UHGV virus genome: UHGV-0169625
Length of the DNA stretch: 44,509 bases
Strand: one strand, 5' to 3'
Source: a virus
In this document: piece after piece, positions 1 through 44,509 of the stretch
Position numbering within the stretch: position 1 is the stretch's first letter
Layout: every line of letters starts with the position of its first letter
Notes under the pieces: model-generated
What the model was told of the DNA's origin: nothing
The model's database searches: none
Seen by the model: only the letters and a program-made list of their open reading frames with translations
Position numbers and translations under genes: made by a program

Positions 1-1446
1 CGGGAAAGTTCCGTCTAAAGTGCGGGTCATATCGTTCAAATCAAGACCTAAGTTTTTAGCAAACGTGACGAAAGCACCGACACCCCCCGCGTAGCCGAGG
101 CCCAGAACCATTGCTTTGGCTATTTGTCTTTGGTCCTTTGTTACATCCTCATAAGCAACGTTGAACACCGTTGATGCGAGTTTCTTATACACATCAACCC
201 CGTTTACAAATACTTCGATTAAATCGTCTTCGCCCGCCAGCCACGCAAGCCCACGGCCTTCAACGTTAGAGTAATCGGCGACGACAAACTTGTGCCCAGC
301 TTCCGGTATGATGCAGCTACGTACCGTCGATGCCGTTAGCTTGGCTACATCGAAACGGCGATGAGCGCGACCCTTAAGTAACGCTGAAATTCCTTTATCC
401 AGTTCATCATCGTGATAGTACCCGCGCGCCAGGTTCTGTGGCTGGAAGCCTTTACCTGCAAATCGTAACGTACGCTTTGCCCCGCCATACTGTATGCAAC
501 CACGGCGACGGTCGTCAGAAGAACGGCCCAACAGCAGTGGGTTATATTTAGTTGATGCAGTTGAAGCAGCCCCGAGGCGCATTTCGATAATCGTACGCGC
601 ATCGTCCGGTAAATCATCATCTGCCAGCAGGTCATTCAGCGTCGACTTCTGCGCGTTGTGGATACGGTGCGCCGGTGCGAGTTCGCGAAGAATCGGAAGG
701 AAGTCTTTACCAGTAAGAGAGCCGCCGTATTTGCGCTGGGCTTCTTCCTGTAACTGTGCCTTGTGCTTCTCCACGGCCTCGATAGCGGCTTCCGCCAGTG
801 CGACGTCAACCTTAAACCCGCGGTCGTTGATTAACTGGTCAAGTTCCAGTACACGGTCTTCGAACTCGGAGTTACCCCACCGCGGCAGCTTATGGAAGAC
901 TTCACGCATCGCAGTGATGTCGCTCACGGCGTACTTGATGAACAGCGCCCACTCGTCCGGGTGTGTTTCTGCGGTGTAGCGGCGGATTTTGTAATTCTTC
1001 GGTGTCGGTTTAGAGAAACGCTGAATCAGCGCCTTGCCGCGTTTATCTTTTGCATTGTCAGCATACACGCCAAGCACTTCACACAGCGCATCAAGTGAAC
1101 CCGGCAGCGCGTGACGAAACGCCCAAATCATCGTATCAATGGTGTTGCTTACGGGAATATCAAAGCCCCAGCAGTGTTTCATGATGAGCCTGTCGAACAT
1201 TGAGCCGTTGTGCCACACCATCTTAATACGACTGTTCGGCTTAACCAGGCGGCGCAGTGCGCGGTGCAAATCACCCGGCATGTCGCTGCCGTCGGTGCAA
1301 TCCCATACCCGCACAGGCTCGTCGTCAAAAGCATATGTGCAGATAAGCACTTCGGTAGTCGGGTGTTCGGCGTAAGCGTAGGAGCCGACTTTCTTTAAAT
1401 CGATGCCGCTGTAGGTTTCAAAGTCTAGATAGAGTAATTCTGGCAT
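1..1446 (-). CDS. DNA polymerase, family A (Pol I-like): N-terminal part with 3'-5' exonuclease domain through motif B; partial, runs off left edge
   Basis: ATG at 1446 (minus) with AAGGG upstream; translation MPELLYLDFETYSGIDLKK (Exo I DxE motif); near position 100 the same frame encodes RQIAKAMVLGLGYAGG (motif B); no stop before position 1, so absent from the ORF track. Confidence 0.85.
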   Translation of the reverse strand, partial: MPELLYLDFETYSGIDLKKVGSYAYAEHPTTEVLICTYAFDDEPVRVWDCTDGSDMPGDLHRALRRLVKPNSRIKMVWHNGSMFDRLIMKHCWGFDIPVSNTIDTMIWAFRHALPGSLDALCEVLGVYADNAKDKRGKALIQRFSKPTPKNYKIRRYTAETHPDEWALFIKYAVSDITAMREVFHKLPRWGNSEFEDRVLELDQLINDRGFKVDVALAEAAIEAVEKHKAQLQEEAQRKYGGSLTGKDFLPILRELAPAHRIHNAQKSTLNDLLADDDLPDDARTIIEMRLGAASTASTKYNPLLLGRSSDDRRRGCIQYGGAKRTLRFAGKGFQPQNLARGYYHDDELDKGISALLKGRAHRRFDVAKLTASTVRSCIIPEAGHKFVVADYSNVEGRGLAWLAGEDDLIEVFVNGVDVYKKLASTVFNVAYEDVTKDQRQIAKAMVLGLGYAGGVGAFVTFAKNLGLDLNDMTRTLDGTFP

Positions 1447-1463
1447 GGTATTTTGACCCTTAG

Positions 1464-1486
1464 TAAAAAGGCCCAATGAAGGGCCT
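1464..1486 (-). terminator. intrinsic terminator-like hairpin between SSB-like gene and polymerase start
   Basis: minus-strand stem AGGCCC/GGGCCT, 6-nt loop, then UUUUU; lies about 18 nt upstream of the polymerase ATG so may attenuate rather than fully terminate. Confidence 0.4.
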
Positions 1487-1506
1487 TAGTTAAATTAATT
1501 CAGATA

Positions 1507-2133
1507 TTAACGGCGACGACGTTCTCGGCGCGGTGCTTCATCTTCTTCTTCGTCTTCCAGGTCGTCGACACTTGCAGCTACTTTAGAACCGCCGAACGCT
1601 TTACCTTCGCCGACGTATTTAATAGCCAGCAGGTTAACGCCGAGGACTTTGTATTTCTGGCTGAACCAGATTTCAACGCTTACGTTAGCGACGCAGCCGC
1701 TGTAAACCTGTTCACCTTCAATCTGTTCCCCGTCTACGTTGAAGTCCTGTTCTACCTGAGTCTCACCCTTTTTAGAGGTTACGATCAGTGGCTGTTTCTG
1801 TGCCTTCGCTTTGAAGTAGAAGCCTTCCGGGAAGTCTTCAAACGGATTGTCGCGCTCGGCAATGTCTTTAATCGCGCATTTATCCATGTGCTTCCCTTCG
1901 CCGTAGTTGGACTTCATCCATTTCTCGGCAGCGGCTGCGCCTAACGCTTCTTCAACTACAGCGTAAACTGTGTCGTAGAGCGCGTCGATTTGCGCATGGT
2001 CAGACGACAGAATGATAGTCGCGCTGTACTGACCTTTAGTGATTGAGCCATCATCGTTTTCACGGTCTTTTTCGCGTTCGAATACGTTAACCCAAGCAGT
2101 GTTTACTTTACGCAGATTCAGTTTCAGTCCCAC
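1507..2133 (-). CDS. putative ssDNA-binding protein (T7 gp2.5-like architecture) with acidic then basic C-terminal tail
   Basis: 208-aa ORF, GTG start with GAGGG SD; C-terminus SVDDLEDEEEDEAPRRERRRR; sits in replication block; family assigned from recollection of pattern, not searched. Confidence 0.45.
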   Translation of the reverse strand: MGLKLNLRKVNTAWVNVFEREKDRENDDGSITKGQYSATIILSSDHAQIDALYDTVYAVVEEALGAAAAEKWMKSNYGEGKHMDKCAIKDIAERDNPFEDFPEGFYFKAKAQKQPLIVTSKKGETQVEQDFNVDGEQIEGEQVYSGCVANVSVEIWFSQKYKVLGVNLLAIKYVGEGKAFGGSKVAASVDDLEDEEEDEAPRRERRRR

Positions 2134-2196
2134 AGTTCAGCCCTCATTAAGTTTAGATTTTCAGTTTACTCCGGGAACTGCCCGGCCAGTGATTTA

Positions 2197-2225
2197 ACTA
2201 TAATAGTTAGCTATTCAGGTGTCAA
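2197..2225 (-). promoter_or_regulatory. sigma70-like promoter (leftward) with embedded palindromic operator
   Basis: minus strand TTGACA (2225-2220), 17-nt spacer, TATAGT (2202-2197); plus strand 2200-2217 reads ATAATAG-ttag-CTATTCA; about 57 nt upstream of the GTG start at 2133. Confidence 0.5.
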
Positions 2226-2229
2226 CACT

Positions 2230-2385
2230 TTATTTAAACGTTTCTTTTGTCATACGGATAATTTTCGCCGACTCGTCTCTAATTACCATACTGAATACAC
2301 GGTATACGGCTTTGCTCCGGCCTAGCTTTGCTCCGTTTCGGTGTTGTTGTAGATAGCTTTTATGCAGTTCTTGAATCGTGCTCAT
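2230..2385 (-). CDS. hypothetical small protein (51 aa)
   Basis: ATG at 2385 overlaps stop of upstream nuclease gene (ATGA), GGAGGA SD 7 nt upstream; track ORF 2230..2415 trimmed to this start. Confidence 0.4.
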   Translation of the reverse strand: MSTIQELHKSYLQQHRNGAKLGRSKAVYRVFSMVIRDESAKIIRMTKETFK

Positions 2386-3647
2386 TCCAAATCCTCCTCT
2401 GTTACCTGATTCCACTCAGGACGTTTGTCGTCCGCCGTTGCGACACATGGTGCACCCGGCTTACGTGTGATAAATGGCTCAAGCGCTGCCATCTCATCTG
2501 CCGAAAGAACTTTTGCCGCCTCCGTAGGGGACATCAATACCTCTTTTTTGAGAATGTCTCCGTGCGACACTTCAATCGCATCGGCGTCTTTCCACGCACG
2601 ATTACCAGGACGACCTTCTACCAGCTTGTACCCCGGTACTTTTTTACCGGAATGCAACGCAGCAGCCATCGCTTTCTCAACCTTGTCGATGTGCTGGCGC
2701 AACAACGGCAACTTCTCATACTCAGCTACAAGTTGCTCTGGCGTAAGTTCCAGTGCAAAGTCGTCTTCCAGTTCTTCCGCCAGTACATCGTTAACGGTTT
2801 TTGTACGCGCGGCGCACTGTTCCGAGAACCGACACCACTGACAACCGTCGACAGACGGCCGGAAGTCCGACGCTTTCAGGTTCTTCTTACCTCGGGAATA
2901 AGCATCAAGCGCTAACAGTGCTCGTTTCTGCGCGAACTTAGCGAACAGTTCCAGGCCTTCAACCGAGATGTCCCACTCCGACGCACCGCCCGCGTACGGC
3001 TGGAAGATGACCAGACGAACAGTCGTTATGTTATAACGTCTCTTGAGCCGGCGATAAACACCGAGAGCATAGAGCATAAGCTGCTTGTTTTCTTTCGCTT
3101 CGACACGATGCCGTCCAGTTTTCAGGTCGCCGATGATAAGCATGTGCTCGTCGGTGTTAGCCAGTTCCTGGACGGCAACAAGGTCAGCAGTTCCGAACGT
3201 CTCAACGCCTTCATACCCCGGATGCAACACCTCAGTAAGATTGACACGCATCTCGAGCTTCGCATAAGTCGCTACGTCGATAATCGGTTTGCAGTAGTCC
3301 GTGTACTTGCGCACCTGCTCAATCATGTCCGCCGTAATCAGTACCGCGCCTTTCATCGGACTGATTAGTGCCTTAATCTGACCTTTACCTTCATCCAGCA
3401 CGTAAGCGCCGACTTCACGCTCTAAAGGCAACGCAGTGCCTTTGATGTACTGGTTTAGATGGACCTCAGCTATGGTGTGCATGGCTGTACCTAATACAGC
3501 GGCTTTACCCGACGTGTTAGGAATATCTTTTTCACAAGCCAGAGATGCACTGCACGCCAGCCACTTTTTAGCGCCTGATGGTGACAGTAATGCGTGAACA
3601 TCGTTATTGCCACCGCGTTCCTTTAAAATCATACCCTGTTCTCCCAC
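2382..3647 (-). CDS. PD-(D/E)XK nuclease, Cas4/RecB-like (DUF2800-type) with 4-Cys cluster
   Basis: 421 aa; IIGDLKTGRHRVEAKENKQLMLYALG matches the D...ExK...QxxxY nuclease core; N-terminal Cys plus C-terminal CQWCRFSEQC resemble the Cas4 Fe-S cluster ligands; ends in acidic tail VTEEDLE. Confidence 0.6.
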   Translation of the reverse strand: MGEQGMILKERGGNNDVHALLSPSGAKKWLACSASLACEKDIPNTSGKAAVLGTAMHTIAEVHLNQYIKGTALPLEREVGAYVLDEGKGQIKALISPMKGAVLITADMIEQVRKYTDYCKPIIDVATYAKLEMRVNLTEVLHPGYEGVETFGTADLVAVQELANTDEHMLIIGDLKTGRHRVEAKENKQLMLYALGVYRRLKRRYNITTVRLVIFQPYAGGASEWDISVEGLELFAKFAQKRALLALDAYSRGKKNLKASDFRPSVDGCQWCRFSEQCAARTKTVNDVLAEELEDDFALELTPEQLVAEYEKLPLLRQHIDKVEKAMAAALHSGKKVPGYKLVEGRPGNRAWKDADAIEVSHGDILKKEVLMSPTEAAKVLSADEMAALEPFITRKPGAPCVATADDKRPEWNQVTEEDLE

Positions 3648-3901
3648 TGGTCAATTAAATGCCTGGTCTTGTGGTCGCAATGTAAGGCCCACCCATACAT
3701 CGACTCGAAGACATAAAAGTCAGGTTTGGCGAAAGTTGTGCGCTTAATCTGTGACACGTGACGGCCAATATCTTTATGCCGTGGTACTTTGCCTAAGTAC
3801 GCCATCTCTTCCATCTGGTGAGCACCGGACGGCGCACGCAATAGCCATAGCGCCTCTGTGTTATCCCGCCTGTCGACGGCGCGGTAGAGTTGGTAAATCA
3901 T
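3629..3901 (-). CDS. hypothetical protein (90 aa)
   Basis: track ORF in minus-strand operon, overlaps start of downstream nuclease gene by 19 nt; no recognisable motif. Confidence 0.35.
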   Translation of the reverse strand: MIYQLYRAVDRRDNTEALWLLRAPSGAHQMEEMAYLGKVPRHKDIGRHVSQIKRTTFAKPDFYVFESMYGWALHCDHKTRHLIDQWENRV

Positions 3902-3944
3902 AATTCCGACCCTCAGTTAAAGCGGCCCGAAGGCCGCGGGATAG

Positions 3945-4463
3945 TTATTCTTCTTCGAAATACTTGTTCTTGATTGCCATCAGGCGTTCCAGGTACTCGG
4001 CCAGGTCTTCGTCTTTAATCGCAGCAATCTTCATCTTCTTACCCGTGAACTCCTCCAGCAGTTCATCAGAATCGTCGCACGCGGCGTCGCTCGGGCCTTC
4101 GTTAATCGCATCGTCGATAGCCTGAATCTGGTCACGAAGAGACTGATAATCGACTTCCTTATCCTCTTCCGGCTCTGGCGTTGGTTCCTCTACTTTAGCT
4201 TTACGCGGCTTGCGTTTCGGCTTCTCTTCCTCCGCAGGTTTAGTGTCGACGATGTCTTCACCTTCAACCGGGATTTCTTTCGCCTTCTCGACTTCTTCAA
4301 GTGCTTTAGCCAGTTCTTTTTTAACTGTCTCTACCCCAGTTACCGCGACGTCAACAGTCAATTCACCTACAGATTTGCTAGTCGGTTGTTTCACACTGTT
4401 TGCAGCAATCAGTTCGTGGGCGACTACGAAACGTTCCAGTAATACTAAGAATTTCTCTAACAT
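3945..4463 (-). CDS. hypothetical acidic protein (172 aa)
   Basis: ATG at 4463 with GAGGAGAG SD; first gene downstream of leftward promoter 4495-4523; Glu/Asp/Lys-rich, ends YFEEE. Confidence 0.5.
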   Translation of the reverse strand: MLEKFLVLLERFVVAHELIAANSVKQPTSKSVGELTVDVAVTGVETVKKELAKALEEVEKAKEIPVEGEDIVDTKPAEEEKPKRKPRKAKVEEPTPEPEEDKEVDYQSLRDQIQAIDDAINEGPSDAACDDSDELLEEFTGKKMKIAAIKDEDLAEYLERLMAIKNKYFEEE

Positions 4464-20577: not shown

Positions 20578-20659
20578 TTGCCTTGCATGTTGGAATAATT
20601 TATTCTTGACATGTAAATCCGGGCGGCCCGGGTTCCAACGTCCAGGGGACATACTGACT

Positions 20660-21361
20660 ATGAATCGTTTTTTACGTTATCCGTTCCAGGAAGAAGCTGG
20701 AGCAGAAGATAAAGCTGGTGGCGGTGACGCACCAAAAATGTTCACCGCTGAAGAAGTTCAGGCGCTGATTGAGAAAGAAGTTGCCGGGCTTAAGGCAAAT
20801 CAGGAAGCGTTGCTGGCGGAGAAGAAAGAAGCCGCTCGCAAAGCAAAAGAGGCCGAAGAACAACGGCAGCGCGCGCACCAGGAGGCGTTAAAGGCTGCTG
20901 GTAAGATGGACGAGTTCGAAAAAACGATTCGTAGCCAGTATGACCCGGTGTTAGCCGAGAAAGATGGTCGCATCTCCAAAATGGCGGAGCGCATCCTCGG
21001 CAGCGAACGTAAAGCGGTGTTAGGCTCTTTTGCGGGTGACTTTATTACCCCGGAAGCAGCGGACATTCTTGCACCGTTCGTCAAGACTGAGTTCGAAGGT
21101 GATGATGTGGTTACTAAGTTTGTCGGCCCAGACGGCAACGTAATCACGACTGACCCGGAACAGTTCCGCAAATACCTGCGCGAACACAAAGCGTTTTCGC
21201 ATTTGATTAAAGCAAATGCAGCTTCCGGCGGCGGGGCTTCCGGTAGCAAAGGCGGCGGGGCCGCACCAGCGTTTAAAGACATGAGTGAAGCAGAGCGTTT
21301 AGCCCTGTATAAATCGAACCCTGCCGAATTTGAACGGCAACTTAAAGCCCTGAGGAAATAA
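20660..21361 (+). CDS. scaffolding protein (putative)
   Basis: start trimmed to ATG 20660; Ala/Glu/Lys-rich helical protein directly upstream of major capsid gene. Confidence 0.55.
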   Translation: MNRFLRYPFQEEAGAEDKAGGGDAPKMFTAEEVQALIEKEVAGLKANQEALLAEKKEAARKAKEAEEQRQRAHQEALKAAGKMDEFEKTIRSQYDPVLAEKDGRISKMAERILGSERKAVLGSFAGDFITPEAADILAPFVKTEFEGDDVVTKFVGPDGNVITTDPEQFRKYLREHKAFSHLIKANAASGGGASGSKGGGAAPAFKDMSEAERLALYKSNPAEFERQLKALRK

Positions 21362-21363
21362 TA

Positions 21364-22413
21364 ATGGCAATTACCACTATCGGCGATATCGTAACTGGCA
21401 ACATCCCGGTCCTGGCGTCTTACATGACCGAGGACCCGGTAGAAAAAACTGCGTTCTTCCAGTCCGGTATTCTGACCCCGACTCCGCACGCTGCCGAGAT
21501 TGCCCGCGGCCCGTCCAACGTCGCTAATATTCCGTTCTGGAAAGCGATTGACACTTCCATCGAGCCTAACTACTCGAACGACGTATACCAGGACATCGCT
21601 ACCCCGCGTAACGTGCAGACCGGCGAGATGATGGCGCGCGTTGCATACCTGAACGAAGGCTTTGGCCAGGCGGACCTGACCGTTGAACTGACCAGCCAGA
21701 ACCCGCTGCAATCTGTGGCTTCTCGCCTGGATAACTTCTGGCAGCGTCAGGCACAACGCCGTCTGATTGCTACTGCGCTCGGTCTGTACAATGACAACGT
21801 AGCTGCTACCGACGAATACCATGAGCAGAACGACATGGTAATCGACGTGTCCTCTACTCTGGGCTTCGACGCTGGCGCGTTCATCGACGCTACCCAGACT
21901 ATGGGTGATGCACTGATGGGTAACGGTGGTGAAGTGCTGGGCGCTATCGCTATGCACAGCTTCGTATACGCGCAGGCGCGTAAGCAGCAGCTCATTGACT
22001 TCACCAGAGACGCCGACAACGACACCCTGTTTGCCACCTACCAGGGCTACCGTGTGATTGTTGACGACAGCATGACTGTAGTCGGTACCGGCAGCAGCCG
22101 TAAGTTCATCTCCATCATCTTCGGCAACGGCGCTATCGGTTACGGAGAAGGTAACCCGACCAATCCGCTGGCATATGAGCGCGAAGAGTCCCGCGGCAAC
22201 GGCGGTGGCGTCGAAACCCTGTGGACACGTAAGACTTGGTTGCTGCACCCACTGGGCTACCGCTTCACCAGCGCGGAGATCACCGGCAACGGCACCGAGA
22301 CCGTCGCACGCTCCGCTTCCTGGCAGGACCTGGCGAACGCCTCCAACTGGAACCGTGTTGTTGGCCGTAAGCACGTACCGATTGCCTTCCTGGTAACTGG
22401 TGTAGGGTCTTAA
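21364..22413 (+). CDS. major capsid protein
   Basis: 349 aa, GAGGAAA SD, follows scaffold and is followed by a strong terminator; by position and size. Confidence 0.75.
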   Translation: MAITTIGDIVTGNIPVLASYMTEDPVEKTAFFQSGILTPTPHAAEIARGPSNVANIPFWKAIDTSIEPNYSNDVYQDIATPRNVQTGEMMARVAYLNEGFGQADLTVELTSQNPLQSVASRLDNFWQRQAQRRLIATALGLYNDNVAATDEYHEQNDMVIDVSSTLGFDAGAFIDATQTMGDALMGNGGEVLGAIAMHSFVYAQARKQQLIDFTRDADNDTLFATYQGYRVIVDDSMTVVGTGSSRKFISIIFGNGAIGYGEGNPTNPLAYEREESRGNGGGVETLWTRKTWLLHPLGYRFTSAEITGNGTETVARSASWQDLANASNWNRVVGRKHVPIAFLVTGVGS

Positions 22414-22430
22414 GGTTAAGATATAATCGA

Positions 22431-22454
22431 GAGGGACTTCGGTCCCTCTTTTCA
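22431..22454 (+). terminator. rho-independent terminator after capsid gene
   Basis: stem GAGGGAC/GTCCCTC, loop TTCG, then TTTTCATTT. Confidence 0.7.
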
Positions 22455-22474
22455 TTTACTAAGAGGATTCCTCA

Positions 22475-39197: not shown

Positions 39198-39709
39198 CTG
39201 GTAAATTTCCTCGCAAGATACGTTATTTCTTCTTCACAAAGTTCATCGAGGTCGTTAGATACAAATCCTCTGGTGAATGTTTTGCTGAACTTTAAGCCCG
39301 CTTTATCATTGTCACCGGCGCACACCCATTCATACGGCAAAAGTGACATTTGCTGCCGTAAGTCAGCTGGTATGTTCGACCCCAATGCGCTAACTGCATT
39401 AAACCCGCAATTCATCAAAGCAACAGCTTTAAATATGCTTTCGGTAACAAATACCACCCCGCTACTTGGCAAATACTCAAGTCCCCATAAACACGGCCTT
39501 GTTGTTCGGGTAAAGTACCGCGCATCCTTTGGGTTCTTGCAGTTCTTTTCAGCATGTGGCTTGTAATGCTGGTACCCGCGTAGCTTACCGTCAAAACCCC
39601 ACAGGTAAAACGTAGCTACTCCAGGGCCTAAGACTACACGTAAACGGTCCGCGTCAAAACCTCGTGACAGCAGATGCGCCTTAAGTAGTAACTCCTCGCC
39701 GTCCATCAT
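39194..39709 (-). CDS. TOPRIM-domain protein (primase-like)
   Basis: 171 aa; VFVTESIFKA (conserved Glu) and CAGDNDKAG (DxD) match TOPRIM motifs. Confidence 0.5.
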   Translation of the reverse strand: MMDGEELLLKAHLLSRGFDADRLRVVLGPGVATFYLWGFDGKLRGYQHYKPHAEKNCKNPKDARYFTRTTRPCLWGLEYLPSSGVVFVTESIFKAVALMNCGFNAVSALGSNIPADLRQQMSLLPYEWVCAGDNDKAGLKFSKTFTRGFVSNDLDELCEEEITYLARKFTR

Positions 39710-41049
39710 TTCTTACCTCGTCTCTTCATGTAATTAAGCAACTCTTCCTGTACCGATTTCTTCTCGTCCGTACGCGCGGCAACAACCTCATCCAGTGTGT
39801 CTTTAGCGACGATGTGATAGAGGAACACCGGGCGCTCGTGCCCCGCCTGCTTCTGGCGAACAGGGCCTATGCGCTCGACAACCTGCAAATAGTGTTCAAG
39901 GTTCCAGCCTTGTGAGATGAACGCCAGATGATGCCCGCCGTCCTGTAAATTCAAACCATGACCGGCTGACGCAGGGTGCACGCATAAAATCTCGATTTCA
40001 CCACGGTTCCATGCTTCCATCTGCTTGTTCCCCTTAGCGCCTTTGGCGAACGCCTGTGCCTGTGGGAATCGCTTAAGGATACGCTCCAGTTCGTGTTTAA
40101 ACTGATAGGCTACCAGCAACGGCTCACCCTGCAACTCCTCAACAATCGACTCGAGCGCATCCAGTTTCGTGTCGTGCACTTTCTCCCAGTCTTTGGTCGC
40201 TTCGCCATCCGGCCCTGACACATACACGGCACCGGATGCAATCTGCAAACATTTCGACGTCTTCGCCGCGGCGTTAGCCGCTTCGACTTCTCCGCTCTCC
40301 AGCTCAGCGAATAACTTCTCCTCCATATCGATGTACGCCTGACGCGCTTTCTTCGGCAGGTCGATTTCAACCGGCACAATAATCGGCGCTTCACAACCGA
40401 ACCACTCGGCAGGGTCGATGGTCAGGCTGATGTCTTTCATCTTCTGATGAATTTCATTATCTGCACCTGGTCGCGCATGATATTCACGCGCCATAGCCGA
40501 CTTACCTTTCTGTACCGAGTTAAACCAGCGGTCTGTGAATGCCGTATACGAAGAGCCGAGGCGCTCGCCAGCGTCGATAAACCAGTTCTGACCCCACAAG
40601 TCTTTGAGGCCGTTTGGTGACGGTGTGCCAGTCAGGTTGATGAAACGCTTAACCTTTCCGAACGCAACCTTGCTGAGCGCCTTTGCCCGCTTGCTACCAC
40701 CCGAACGGCTGCGGAACGATTTAAGCTTCGTGCTTTCATCGGCAACGATAACCGTAAAAGGCCAGTCGTCTTTGCCGTAGTAGTCAATTAGCCACTCGAT
40801 AACTTCGTAGTTAGTGCACACCACGTTAGCATCTGACTCCAGCCCCCCGATGGCGCCCTTCTCCGCACCACATGCATCTAACAAACCCAGACAACCGGAA
40901 TCGCCCTGTCGTGTTGGCGTTAGTTGCCAATTCGCCAGCCTAAATTTGGGTTTTTTGTCAACACCACGTTCCCATCTCACTCCCGGGCCGCGAGGGGGCG
41001 CTTCTCCGAACCAGTTGCATCTACGACACGCAGACAAGGGAATTGCCAT
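39706..41049 (-). CDS. SNF2-family helicase, C-terminal ORF (lacks Walker A)
   Basis: 447 aa; VIVADESTKLK (motif II-like), LTGTPSPNGLKDLW (motif III); N-terminal 50 codons read a diverged duplicate segment in an alternative frame. Confidence 0.6.
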   Translation of the reverse strand: MAIPLSACRRCNWFGEAPPRGPGVRWERGVDKKPKFRLANWQLTPTRQGDSGCLGLLDACGAEKGAIGGLESDANVVCTNYEVIEWLIDYYGKDDWPFTVIVADESTKLKSFRSRSGGSKRAKALSKVAFGKVKRFINLTGTPSPNGLKDLWGQNWFIDAGERLGSSYTAFTDRWFNSVQKGKSAMAREYHARPGADNEIHQKMKDISLTIDPAEWFGCEAPIIVPVEIDLPKKARQAYIDMEEKLFAELESGEVEAANAAAKTSKCLQIASGAVYVSGPDGEATKDWEKVHDTKLDALESIVEELQGEPLLVAYQFKHELERILKRFPQAQAFAKGAKGNKQMEAWNRGEIEILCVHPASAGHGLNLQDGGHHLAFISQGWNLEHYLQVVERIGPVRQKQAGHERPVFLYHIVAKDTLDEVVAARTDEKKSVQEELLNYMKRRGKK

Positions 41050-41273
41050 TTCTCTTGTTCAGCGGGCCACGTACCGGACGCAACACGTAACGGGGCAAGG
41101 ATTAACACGCGGTCCTCTTCCGTAAGCTGCCCGTTGCGGAACAGGCGGTTGAGCACCCACATAGTGGAGGAGGTTTTACCTCCCCCCATTCCGCACCAGA
41201 TATTACAGCGCGGGTGTTGCAGCATGAACGAAGTCATGAGCTTCTGGTATTCGCGCCTTTGAAACTTACTCAT
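40977..41273 (-). CDS. SNF2-family helicase, N-terminal fragment with Walker A
   Basis: 98 aa; CGMGGGKTS Walker A and LILAPLRVASGTWPAEQEKW; terminates at TGA inside a diverged duplicate segment, different frame from the C-terminal ORF. Confidence 0.5.
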   Translation of the reverse strand: MSKFQRREYQKLMTSFMLQHPRCNIWCGMGGGKTSSTMWVLNRLFRNGQLTEEDRVLILAPLRVASGTWPAEQEKWQFPCLRVVDATGSEKRPLAARE

Positions 41274-42437: not shown

Positions 42438-42722
42438 TTAACTATAATAGCTCGCTATTAGGTCGTCAACCTGTTTAAACGAACCAACGACAAAAACATT
42501 TGCACCACGTTTACGCATCCGCTCATGCTCGCGTAACTGGTGCGGGTCTGGCTTCGTGTTTTCGTCTTTTTTAACCTCGACGAACCAGATGATGCCGCCG
42601 GGGAGAATTACCAGCAGGTCGGGAGCGCCGGAGCGCCCCTCGTAGGAAAGTTTACGAACGAGGCCCCCAATGGCCTCGAATCGCTCTTTTGCGTATTTCT
42701 GAATCTTGCCTTCCGGTGTCAT
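42438..42722 (-). CDS. VRR-NUC domain nuclease
   Basis: 94 aa; PDLLVILPGGIIWFVEVKK gives the PD...(D/E)xK core. Confidence 0.6.
   Translation of the reverse strand: MTPEGKIQKYAKERFEAIGGLVRKLSYEGRSGAPDLLVILPGGIIWFVEVKKDENTKPDPHQLREHERMRKRGANVFVVGSFKQVDDLIASYYS
42441..42469 (-). promoter_or_regulatory. sigma70-like promoter (leftward) with embedded palindromic operator, inside 3' end of VRR-NUC gene
   Basis: minus strand TTGACG (42469-42464), 17 nt, TATAGT (42446-42441); plus strand 42444-42461 reads ATAATAG-ctcg-CTATTAG. Confidence 0.5.
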
Positions 42723-43002
42723 CAGTCCGTTACCTTACACAAAACGGCAACACCTAAAAACACGGCTACGATTACCATAATAAGGGTAAGCATTGTCATA
42801 ATACACACCCCTCACGTTTCGTATGCTCAATCCCGCAGCGCGGACAGATTCGACAGTCTTCTTCGTAGAACCAGTAAATTTTCATTCCAGCACCCACAGA
42901 TAAATTGCGATGAGCATGCCTAATACGGCGACAGTCATGCCGTATTGACCCTCGTGACAGTAGACACCGGCGGCGAATCCCGCCAGTACCGCGATAATAA
43001 GT

Positions 43003-43698
43003 TTACTTAGCATCTCTACATTCTCCTTCAGGCCACCTATTAGGGAAAGACGGTATATGTGAAACTTCTCTCGCCGCTTTTATTCTTTTAATGGCGGGAC
43101 CTATCTCCGTAACCATTTCGATGAATGTAAACCGGTGTCCTCTGGTAAGATTACATGTCTGACAACAAGAAACGCAGTTAGATACTATGTGTCCGCTTGT
43201 GTTATCAATGCGGTCTACCCCGACTTTTGTAGTGCTTCCGCAATAATGACACGGCTGTGATATCAGTTTAATAACACTTTCCAGTGTTAAATCGCACATA
43301 AGCCCTTTCCCTGAATCCGCTCTTTTGTACCCCAACAAAAGCGCGTACGCCCGCGTCCTTTGGTCCTTATTCACCAGTTCCCTGCGTTGCTTGTTGAGAC
43401 ACTCTCGGCAATCTTTCCGGATATGAGAGCCGTTGCTTTTATTTCCTTTCCGGAAGTTTTCCTCTGTTAAGGGTTTTATCTCTCCGCACTTTCTGCATTT
43501 AACAGGCTTCCCCGTGAAAACATACCAAGGGCTTTCTCGCCGTGATTTACCTTGTAATTTAAGTTTTTCGTCATACTTTTCCTTCCTGTTGGCGTTTACA
43601 CACTCTTTACACCAGCTTTGCAGACCGAGGCGCGTTGACTTTGAAAAATACTCCGTAGTCGCGGGTTTATCTTCACCACATCTTGAACACTTTTTCAT
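43003..43698 (-). CDS. HNH homing endonuclease (free-standing)
   Basis: start trimmed to ATG 43698 (MKKCSRCGEDK, GGAG SD); C-terminal CHYCG...VDRIDN...GH...N...CN matches the HNH motif; lies directly downstream of the polymerase gene. Confidence 0.7.
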   Translation of the reverse strand: MKKCSRCGEDKPATTEYFSKSTRLGLQSWCKECVNANRKEKYDEKLKLQGKSRRESPWYVFTGKPVKCRKCGEIKPLTEENFRKGNKSNGSHIRKDCRECLNKQRRELVNKDQRTRAYALLLGYKRADSGKGLMCDLTLESVIKLISQPCHYCGSTTKVGVDRIDNTSGHIVSNCVSCCQTCNLTRGHRFTFIEMVTEIGPAIKRIKAAREVSHIPSFPNRWPEGECRDAK

Positions 43699-43708
43699 TA
43701 GTAACTCC

Positions 43709-43741
43709 AAAAAAAATACCGACATAGTCATTATATCGGTA
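43709..43741 (-). terminator. terminator-like hairpin between polymerase stop and HNH gene
   Basis: minus strand stem TACCGA/TCGGTA, 13-nt loop containing TATAAT, then eight U. Confidence 0.45.
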
Positions 43742-43774
43742 TTTACATTTTCTACAGCGTATTTCCTAAATCTA

Positions 43775-44509
43775 CTACTTGGCGTATCTGTACATTTCGC
43801 TGCCTTCTGCAACCAAAGGGAAGCCTTCTGCCCATTCCGGTAATTCGCACATCAACCGCTCAAGCTCTGCGACATTGTATTCCGGTAAATCTGGCGTCTC
43901 GCAGATAATCTCATCGTGTACGTGAAGTACAATCGGGTAGCCGTTTGCTTCTACGTTCAGCAGTGCATTAGCCAGCAAATCACGGCACAGCGCCTGAGTA
44001 CAGTTTTCCACCAGTTTACCGGAGTAGGTGTACTGGAATCCCCACTGACGAGTTAACTGGTTTTCTCCCTGATACTTGATGCGCACGTTAGTAGACACCT
44101 TTCCATCTTCGTCTGTCTCTTTCGACACGCTCAATCCGACGCCGGGGTAGGACATAACGCGGCCAGACGGCAACGTCATACGCAACCACCAACCGGCGAC
44201 CTTGTTGCCGTTGTTGTCCGTTTCTACGTTGCGCGAAAACTTAACACCCCGCGGCCCTGCAGTGAACTCTTTACCAGGATTGCGGATGGCCGCCATAGCC
44301 GCGTCTTCAATATCGCGCCAGAATTGTACTATCGCCGGATTGGCCTCTCGGTACATGCGTTTCAGAGCGTCACATGTTCTCCATACTTTCTTATCAAGTA
44401 TATATGATGGTCGGTCATCCTTTTCACCAGGACGCGGTGGTCGCTTGGCGTCCTGAATACGCGCCCACTAGTAACCGCGTGCGGTAGCCCCCCAAATATG
44501 GTCCGGGAA
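43775..44509 (-). CDS. DNA polymerase, family A: C-terminal part incl. motif C; runs off right edge; in-frame TAG at 44468-44470
   Basis: frame of track ORF 43775..44356 (YPIVLHVHDEIICE = motif C) stays open upstream to a TAG at 44470-44468 and again to the window end; same frame as the N-terminal part at the left edge if the window is circular. Confidence 0.75.

Follow-up and report, generated by a model that had tools for sequence, protein, structure and literature searches.

An in-frame amber codon at the end of a Kagunavirus-like metagenome contig as a probable sequencing error in an ordinary polymerase gene

We conclude that the amber codon interrupting the DNA polymerase frame of a 44,509-nucleotide viral genome record is not a real feature, and that the underlying gene is an ordinary Kagunavirus family A polymerase. 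The TAG is very probably a read-tail sequencing error at a coverage gap in a low-coverage metagenome contig, a cause that we infer from the pattern of differences between this record and other assemblies of the same strain. The phage itself has a polymerase gene of 724-734 codons in one uninterrupted ORF. The record contains a second artefact, in its SNF2 helicase gene. Throughout, "the window" means the whole stretch of 44,509 nt that was analysed; positions are numbered along it, and the main features are collected in Table 1.

Table 1. Features of the polymerase gene, of the junction between the two ends of the window, and of the helicase artefact
Feature	Position	Strand	Description	Basis
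Family A DNA polymerase, 5' part	1..1446	-	3'-5' exonuclease-like region, motifs A and B	Translation; Pfam DNA_pol_A; same-strain 734-aa product
Family A DNA polymerase, 3' part	43775..44509	-	Junction to TAG TAG terminator; motif C (HVHDE)	In phase with the left part
CGGGAA	44504..44509	.	Redundant copy of window 1-6; overlap of the circle's two ends	One copy in relatives and same-strain contigs
GGG (Gly487)	44489..44491	-	True codon TCG (Ser); two transversions, 44491 and 44490	Same-strain contigs
In-frame TAG	44468..44470	-	True codon GAG (Glu494); G>T at 44470	Same-strain contigs and relatives
GAC (Asp500)	44450..44450	-	True codon GAA (Glu); A>C	Same-strain contigs and relatives
Assembly artefact in SNF2 helicase	~40843-40996	-	143 nt added; two error-rich read tails joined	Same-strain contigs and relatives

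The record and its polymerase gene

The window is the ENA metagenome contig ERZ1311714 NODE_200_length_44509_cov_3.797826, and the end of the contig as fetched was identical to that of the window. Its SPAdes-style name gives a k-mer coverage of ~3.8x, a contig-wide figure. The window contains the complete genome, circular (permuted), of a Kagunavirus-like (Guernseyvirinae) coliphage. Its nucleotide identity to many E. coli phage records is 88-94%, with a common gene order, and Kagunavirus records match 73-86% of each window half at 89-94% identity; this genome-wide similarity and the synteny with classified members place the phage in Kagunavirus, within the Guernseyvirinae. The polymerase has its nearest known counterparts in the family A enzymes of Kagunavirus and Jerseyvirus phages (Guernseyvirinae), among them those of Escherichia phages Shashou (MK931440), JSSK01 (OQ442786) and vB_Eco_ORH_001 (PV656001) and of Salmonella virus VSe101 (MN393078). 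These phages have the gene order of the window (ssDNA-binding protein, polymerase, small ORFs, VRR-NUC, methylase, SNF2 helicase) and are 88-93% identical to it in nucleotide sequence around the junction of its two ends; identity to JSSK01 reaches only ~90%.

Within the plus-strand structural module, a minus-strand ORF of 551 aa (20800-22455) lies antisense to two co-directional plus-strand ORFs, 20606-21361 (251 aa) and 21364-22413 (349 aa). A counterpart 98.7% identical to it is annotated as a hypothetical protein in PV656001. There are two readings of the 551-aa frame: a long antisense ORF that is conserved, or a miscall in annotation.

The polymerase is encoded on the minus strand and is cut by the ends of the window. 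From ATG 1446 an ORF of exactly 482 codons stays open to position 1. As the preliminary description had proposed, the frame resumes in phase at the right edge, and it runs on from 44509 to a stop at 43777-43775, with a second TAG directly after. Pfam DNA_pol_A (PF00476) scored 78.7 bits against a cutoff of 34.3 over residues 372-468, which places the product in family A. Motif A (VADYSNVE) and motif B (RQIAKAMVLGLGY) lie in residues 374-478, a stretch that aligns to the Bst, Taq and Klenow Pol I enzymes; in a weak second stretch, motif C of Bst Pol I (QVHDE) is matched by HVHDE at ~676, which completes the catalytic motifs A, B and C of a family A polymerase. In the N-terminal part the 3'-5' exonuclease domain (PF01612) scored 23.2 bits, just below its cutoff of 23.6. 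HMMER aligned the product to Bst and Klenow Pol I over residues 374-478 and again, weakly, over 660-702, so that additional residues separate motif B from motif C. An insertion of about 55 codons after motif B had been noted before; the extra sequence is indeed there, while the figure of 55 was a reading by eye only.

The start of the gene is ambiguous: gene callers on the same-strain contigs chose TTG 1476, giving 734 aa, whereas ATG 1446, giving 724 aa, corresponds to the annotated polymerase starts of the GenBank relatives. Those relatives have one single polymerase ORF of 723-751 aa, and the 3' part of the window's gene is collinear both with these single CDSs and with the 734-aa genes in the same-strain contigs. 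Among Kagunavirus polymerases, the Golestan type carries an extra segment of ~27 aa (PKNKKKKVRYDWMSEKDWWRVTHPLSYGID) at about 355-385 (Golestan residues) and has a finger region diverged from the type found in the window, which indicates mosaicism within the polymerase gene.

The first and last 6 nt of the window are identical (CGGGAA), an observation made earlier that we can now extend: this is the sole overlap of the two ends, and no longer one exists. When the last 400 and the first 400 nt of the window were joined into an 800-nt query, it matched 794 contiguous nt within a single polymerase CDS in many GenBank phages, including Shashou, Sciku, JSSK01 and VSe101, implying that CGGGAA is the 6-nt overlap of the ends of one circle. 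Once the overlap is removed, the window aligns gap-free across the junction to contigs of the same strain. The ends of the window abut in related genomes, as those of a complete circular or circularly permuted record should, and the suggestion that such a record had been opened inside the polymerase gene is therefore upheld.

The TAG codon in the same strain and in relatives

The TAG at 44470-44468 is present in the sequence and in frame, as the preliminary description had reported. To compare it with the same strain elsewhere, we used five assemblies located through exact-sequence lookup of neighbouring proteins: ERZ28659941 scaffold_738 (44,364 nt), ERZ1307772 NODE_1619, Logan SRR27172620_4024, ERZ1310531 NODE_6301 and ERZ1310596 NODE_10658. 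They are 99.1-99.9% identical to the window, and all five cross the junction without a gap. At the position of the TAG every one of them has GAG, in the context TGG TCG GCT ... TAC GAG TGG ... CAG GAA GCC. The three in which the whole gene was called (scaffold_738, NODE_1619 and SRR27172620_4024) have an intact 734-aa polymerase. Two of these, scaffold_738 and NODE_1619, are 99.9% identical to the window over 6.5 kb and have the same gene content in the polymerase region. An interruption in the true sequence, which the preliminary description had made to depend on there being no sense codon at 44468-44470, is in effect refuted by the GAG found there in five independent assemblies.

The TAG does not stand alone. 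We compared scaffold_738 with window 4463..7 joined to 44509..42448, a stretch of 6,519 nt, and found 99.94% identity, zero gaps and four mismatches only; at the other 6,515 positions, the whole left end included, the two are identical. Given as minus-strand bases, the private changes are 44491 T>G, 44490 C>G, 44470 G>T and 44450 A>C. All four are transversions, their distances from the contig's right end are 19-60 nt, and together they alter three codons; those at 44491 and 44490 create a run of six G. If mismatches were placed uniformly, the probability that all four would fall in the terminal 60 nt is, by our own arithmetic, (60/6519)^4, or ~7e-9.

This clustering bears on the idea that the TAG is a real polymerase amber allele of the sampled population, complemented by co-infecting wild type or carried in an amber-suppressor host. 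The codon is genuinely present in the public record, GAG becomes TAG by one base change, and sequence alone cannot prove a TAG to be an error; in a supE-type suppressor host, Gln would be inserted, a residue similar to Glu. We nevertheless consider such an allele very improbable. It would have to coincide with three more private transversions within 41 nt at the extreme end of a contig that otherwise matches its strain along the compared stretch, and one of these changes also strikes an invariant Glu. The contig has 3.8x coverage and contains another clear read-tail artefact, the window has no tRNA, and the five same-strain assemblies, of which three have ERZ13 accession numbers close to that of the window, all have GAG. 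A laboratory amber mutant propagated on a suppressor host, one of the explanations suggested earlier, is contradicted by the source, which is a metagenome contig and not a cultured isolate. Slightly less credible again is the narrower proposal that the codon is real in that one sample; a polymerase-null Kagunavirus genome would then persist in its natural community by cheating on co-infecting wild type or by growing on an amber-suppressor host.

The relatives agree with the same strain. Alignment with polymerases of related phages, a check that the preliminary description had recommended, showed Glu at position 494, the site of the TAG, in 85 of 85 relatives (a segment alignment reaching down to ~55% protein identity), within the motif G[YWF]E[WYF]A[RK]I. 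Position 500 was likewise Glu in 85/85 of that alignment, and both residues are invariant in a full-length alignment of 76 relatives. From the residues invariant in those 76, the window departs at only 2 of 724 positions, namely 494, where a stop replaces Glu, and 500, where Asp does; when the 23 close relatives are taken, the sole additional departure is at position 487, which in other relatives is A, S, T or K and never G. Positions 487, 494 and 500 all lie within 14 codons next to the contig end. The segment that contains them, DGTFPDHIWxATARGYEWARIQEAKRPP, is nearly invariant in Kagunavirus/Jerseyvirus polymerases; the window alone has Gly487, the TAG and Asp500 in it, whereas scaffold_738, which gives the true sequence of the strain, has Ser487, Glu494 and Glu500. 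Exact and degenerate sequence searches of IMG/VR and JGI metagenome contigs did not find the TAG variant.

This lack of conservation effectively refutes programmed readthrough. Both before and after the TAG the frame is open, and motif C, which is essential, lies downstream, as would be expected if UAG were read through or recoded by design, by reassignment or by regulated readthrough, to yield a full-length polymerase. Yet a stop at this position occurs in 0 of 85 relatives and 0 of 5 same-strain contigs, TAG terminates at least four other genes in the window, and the polymerase itself ends in TAG TAG. An ARAGORN scan detected no tRNA gene in the window, implying that the phage encodes no suppressor there; neither a suppressor tRNA nor avoidance of TAG, as stop reassignment would entail, was seen. 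The 94 nt starting at the TAG fold no better than shuffled sequence (MFE -24.3 kcal/mol, z = -1.23; 24 of 200 shuffles fold as well), so that they offer no stimulatory structure for readthrough. The base after the TAG is U, and in E. coli termination contexts a U after the stop favours efficient termination. We therefore give readthrough or recoding almost no chance of being correct.

A natural division of the polymerase into a 493-aa product that stops at the TAG and a 193-aa product initiated at ATG 44356 is refuted by the continuous 734-aa gene in the same-strain contigs. Split polymerase genes exist in some phages, and the 193-aa ORF was indeed called by the gene caller on the source contig; it is on record on exactly one public contig, ERZ1311714 NODE_200. 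Against such a split, the relatives, like the same strain, encode a continuous ORF, 37 conserved codons between the TAG and ATG 44356 would be lost, and that ATG has no Shine-Dalgarno motif: the 25 nt upstream (GAGAACATGTGACGCTCTGAAACGC) hold none, in agreement with what had been said of them before. The chance that the gene is really divided in this way is, in our view, just as negligible as that of readthrough.

A read tail at a coverage gap

Three explanations of the TAG had been offered at the outset. The first, an error of sequencing or assembly close to the contig end, has strong support; the other two, the amber mutant on a suppressor host and programmed readthrough, are not supported. 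As expected of errors at a contig end, the differences (4 mismatches in 6,519 nt) occur in this contig only, all of them near its end; the other contigs of the strain lack them and agree with one another there. We propose that there was a local coverage gap within the polymerase gene, where reads from the two sides would overlap by 6 nt only. An overlap of 6 nt is shorter than any assembly k, which would explain why the circle was left open at this point. The last 60 nt of the right end are probably one low-quality, poorly supported read tail, and this tail would carry the four miscalls (44491, 44490, 44470 and 44450), one of which turns GAG (Glu494) into TAG.

This proposal fits known artefacts of low-coverage de Bruijn graph assemblies, in which contig ends may be rich in errors and untrimmed low-quality read tails may be misjoined. 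The window resembles them in its 3.8x coverage, its end-confined private transversions and its internal duplication with decaying identity (see below), and, judged from the contigs alone, it does not differ from them in substance.

Two features run contrary to a read-tail error. A simply decaying tail is expected to be worst at its very end, yet no error occurs in the final 18 nt (44492-44509). In addition, the error sites are regularly spaced: 44450, 44470 and 44490/44491 are exactly 20 nt apart, with 19 and 19 clean nt between them and 18 beyond the last. With this spacing there is no error-free 21-mer in the last 60 nt; the regularity may have been selected for by error correction or graph merging at k=21, or may have arisen by chance.

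Irregularities occur in other contigs as well. In ERZ1310522 NODE_1099, a low-coverage contig with a nearby ERZ13 number, position 1 is the equivalent of window position 44468, so that it ends 41 nt from the break of the window. At the equivalent of 44450 it has T, where the window has C and the true base is A. That two contigs break and are miscalled in one small region may point to a stretch that is locally hard to sequence. ERZ1310596 NODE_10658 (coverage 1.42), which also has a nearby ERZ13 number, has 11 private mismatches against the strain, all of them transversions and all in two patches, at the window equivalents of 44397-44326 and 44135-44114; its error profile is that of the read tails described here, and the data set is evidently error-prone in this way.

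The helicase gene

The second artefact lies in the SNF2 helicase gene, where a break was flagged when the proteins of ORH_001 were compared with the window. The window has 143 nt more here than ORH_001, JSSK01, Golestan and a contig of the same strain. The insertion is a duplicated, degraded copy of helicase sequence, and it breaks the gene in two, leaving one ORF of 98 aa (40977-41273) and one of 424-447 aa (39706-41049); the same-strain contigs have one intact SNF2 helicase of 474 aa. Identity to the true sequence, counted per 20 nt, falls from both sides: from the upstream side it is 20/20 and then 18, 15, 13, 13, 14 and 12, and from the downstream side 20/20 and then 18, 16, 14 and 9. Such two-sided decay of identity is the signature of a join between two low-quality read tails.

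Both genes are thus intact in the same-strain contigs (polymerase 734 aa, helicase 474 aa), which have neither the four terminal substitutions nor the 143-nt insertion. The corrected genome is the record without its 6-nt overlap, without these four substitutions and without the insertion. Removing the overlap and the insertion leaves ~44,360 nt, near the 44,364 nt of scaffold_738.

ERZ1311714 NODE_200 should not be cited to show that the polymerase or the helicase is recoded, split or defective. The finding matters for quality control only; artefactual gene calls from the record are already in protein collections: the 193-aa polymerase fragment and the helicase pieces of 98 and 424 aa. For in-frame stops near the ends of low-coverage contigs, sibling assemblies should be compared before any biological reading is attempted.

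The divergent N-terminus of the helicase (NIWCGMGGGKTSST) was considered as a further error and rejected; the same residues are encoded in a same-strain contig. In Shashou and VSe101 the SNF2 helicase gene is 2.4-2.5 kb long and is interrupted by an intein right after the P-loop (GSGKC...), annotated as such in Shashou; the strain represented by the window is without this intein.
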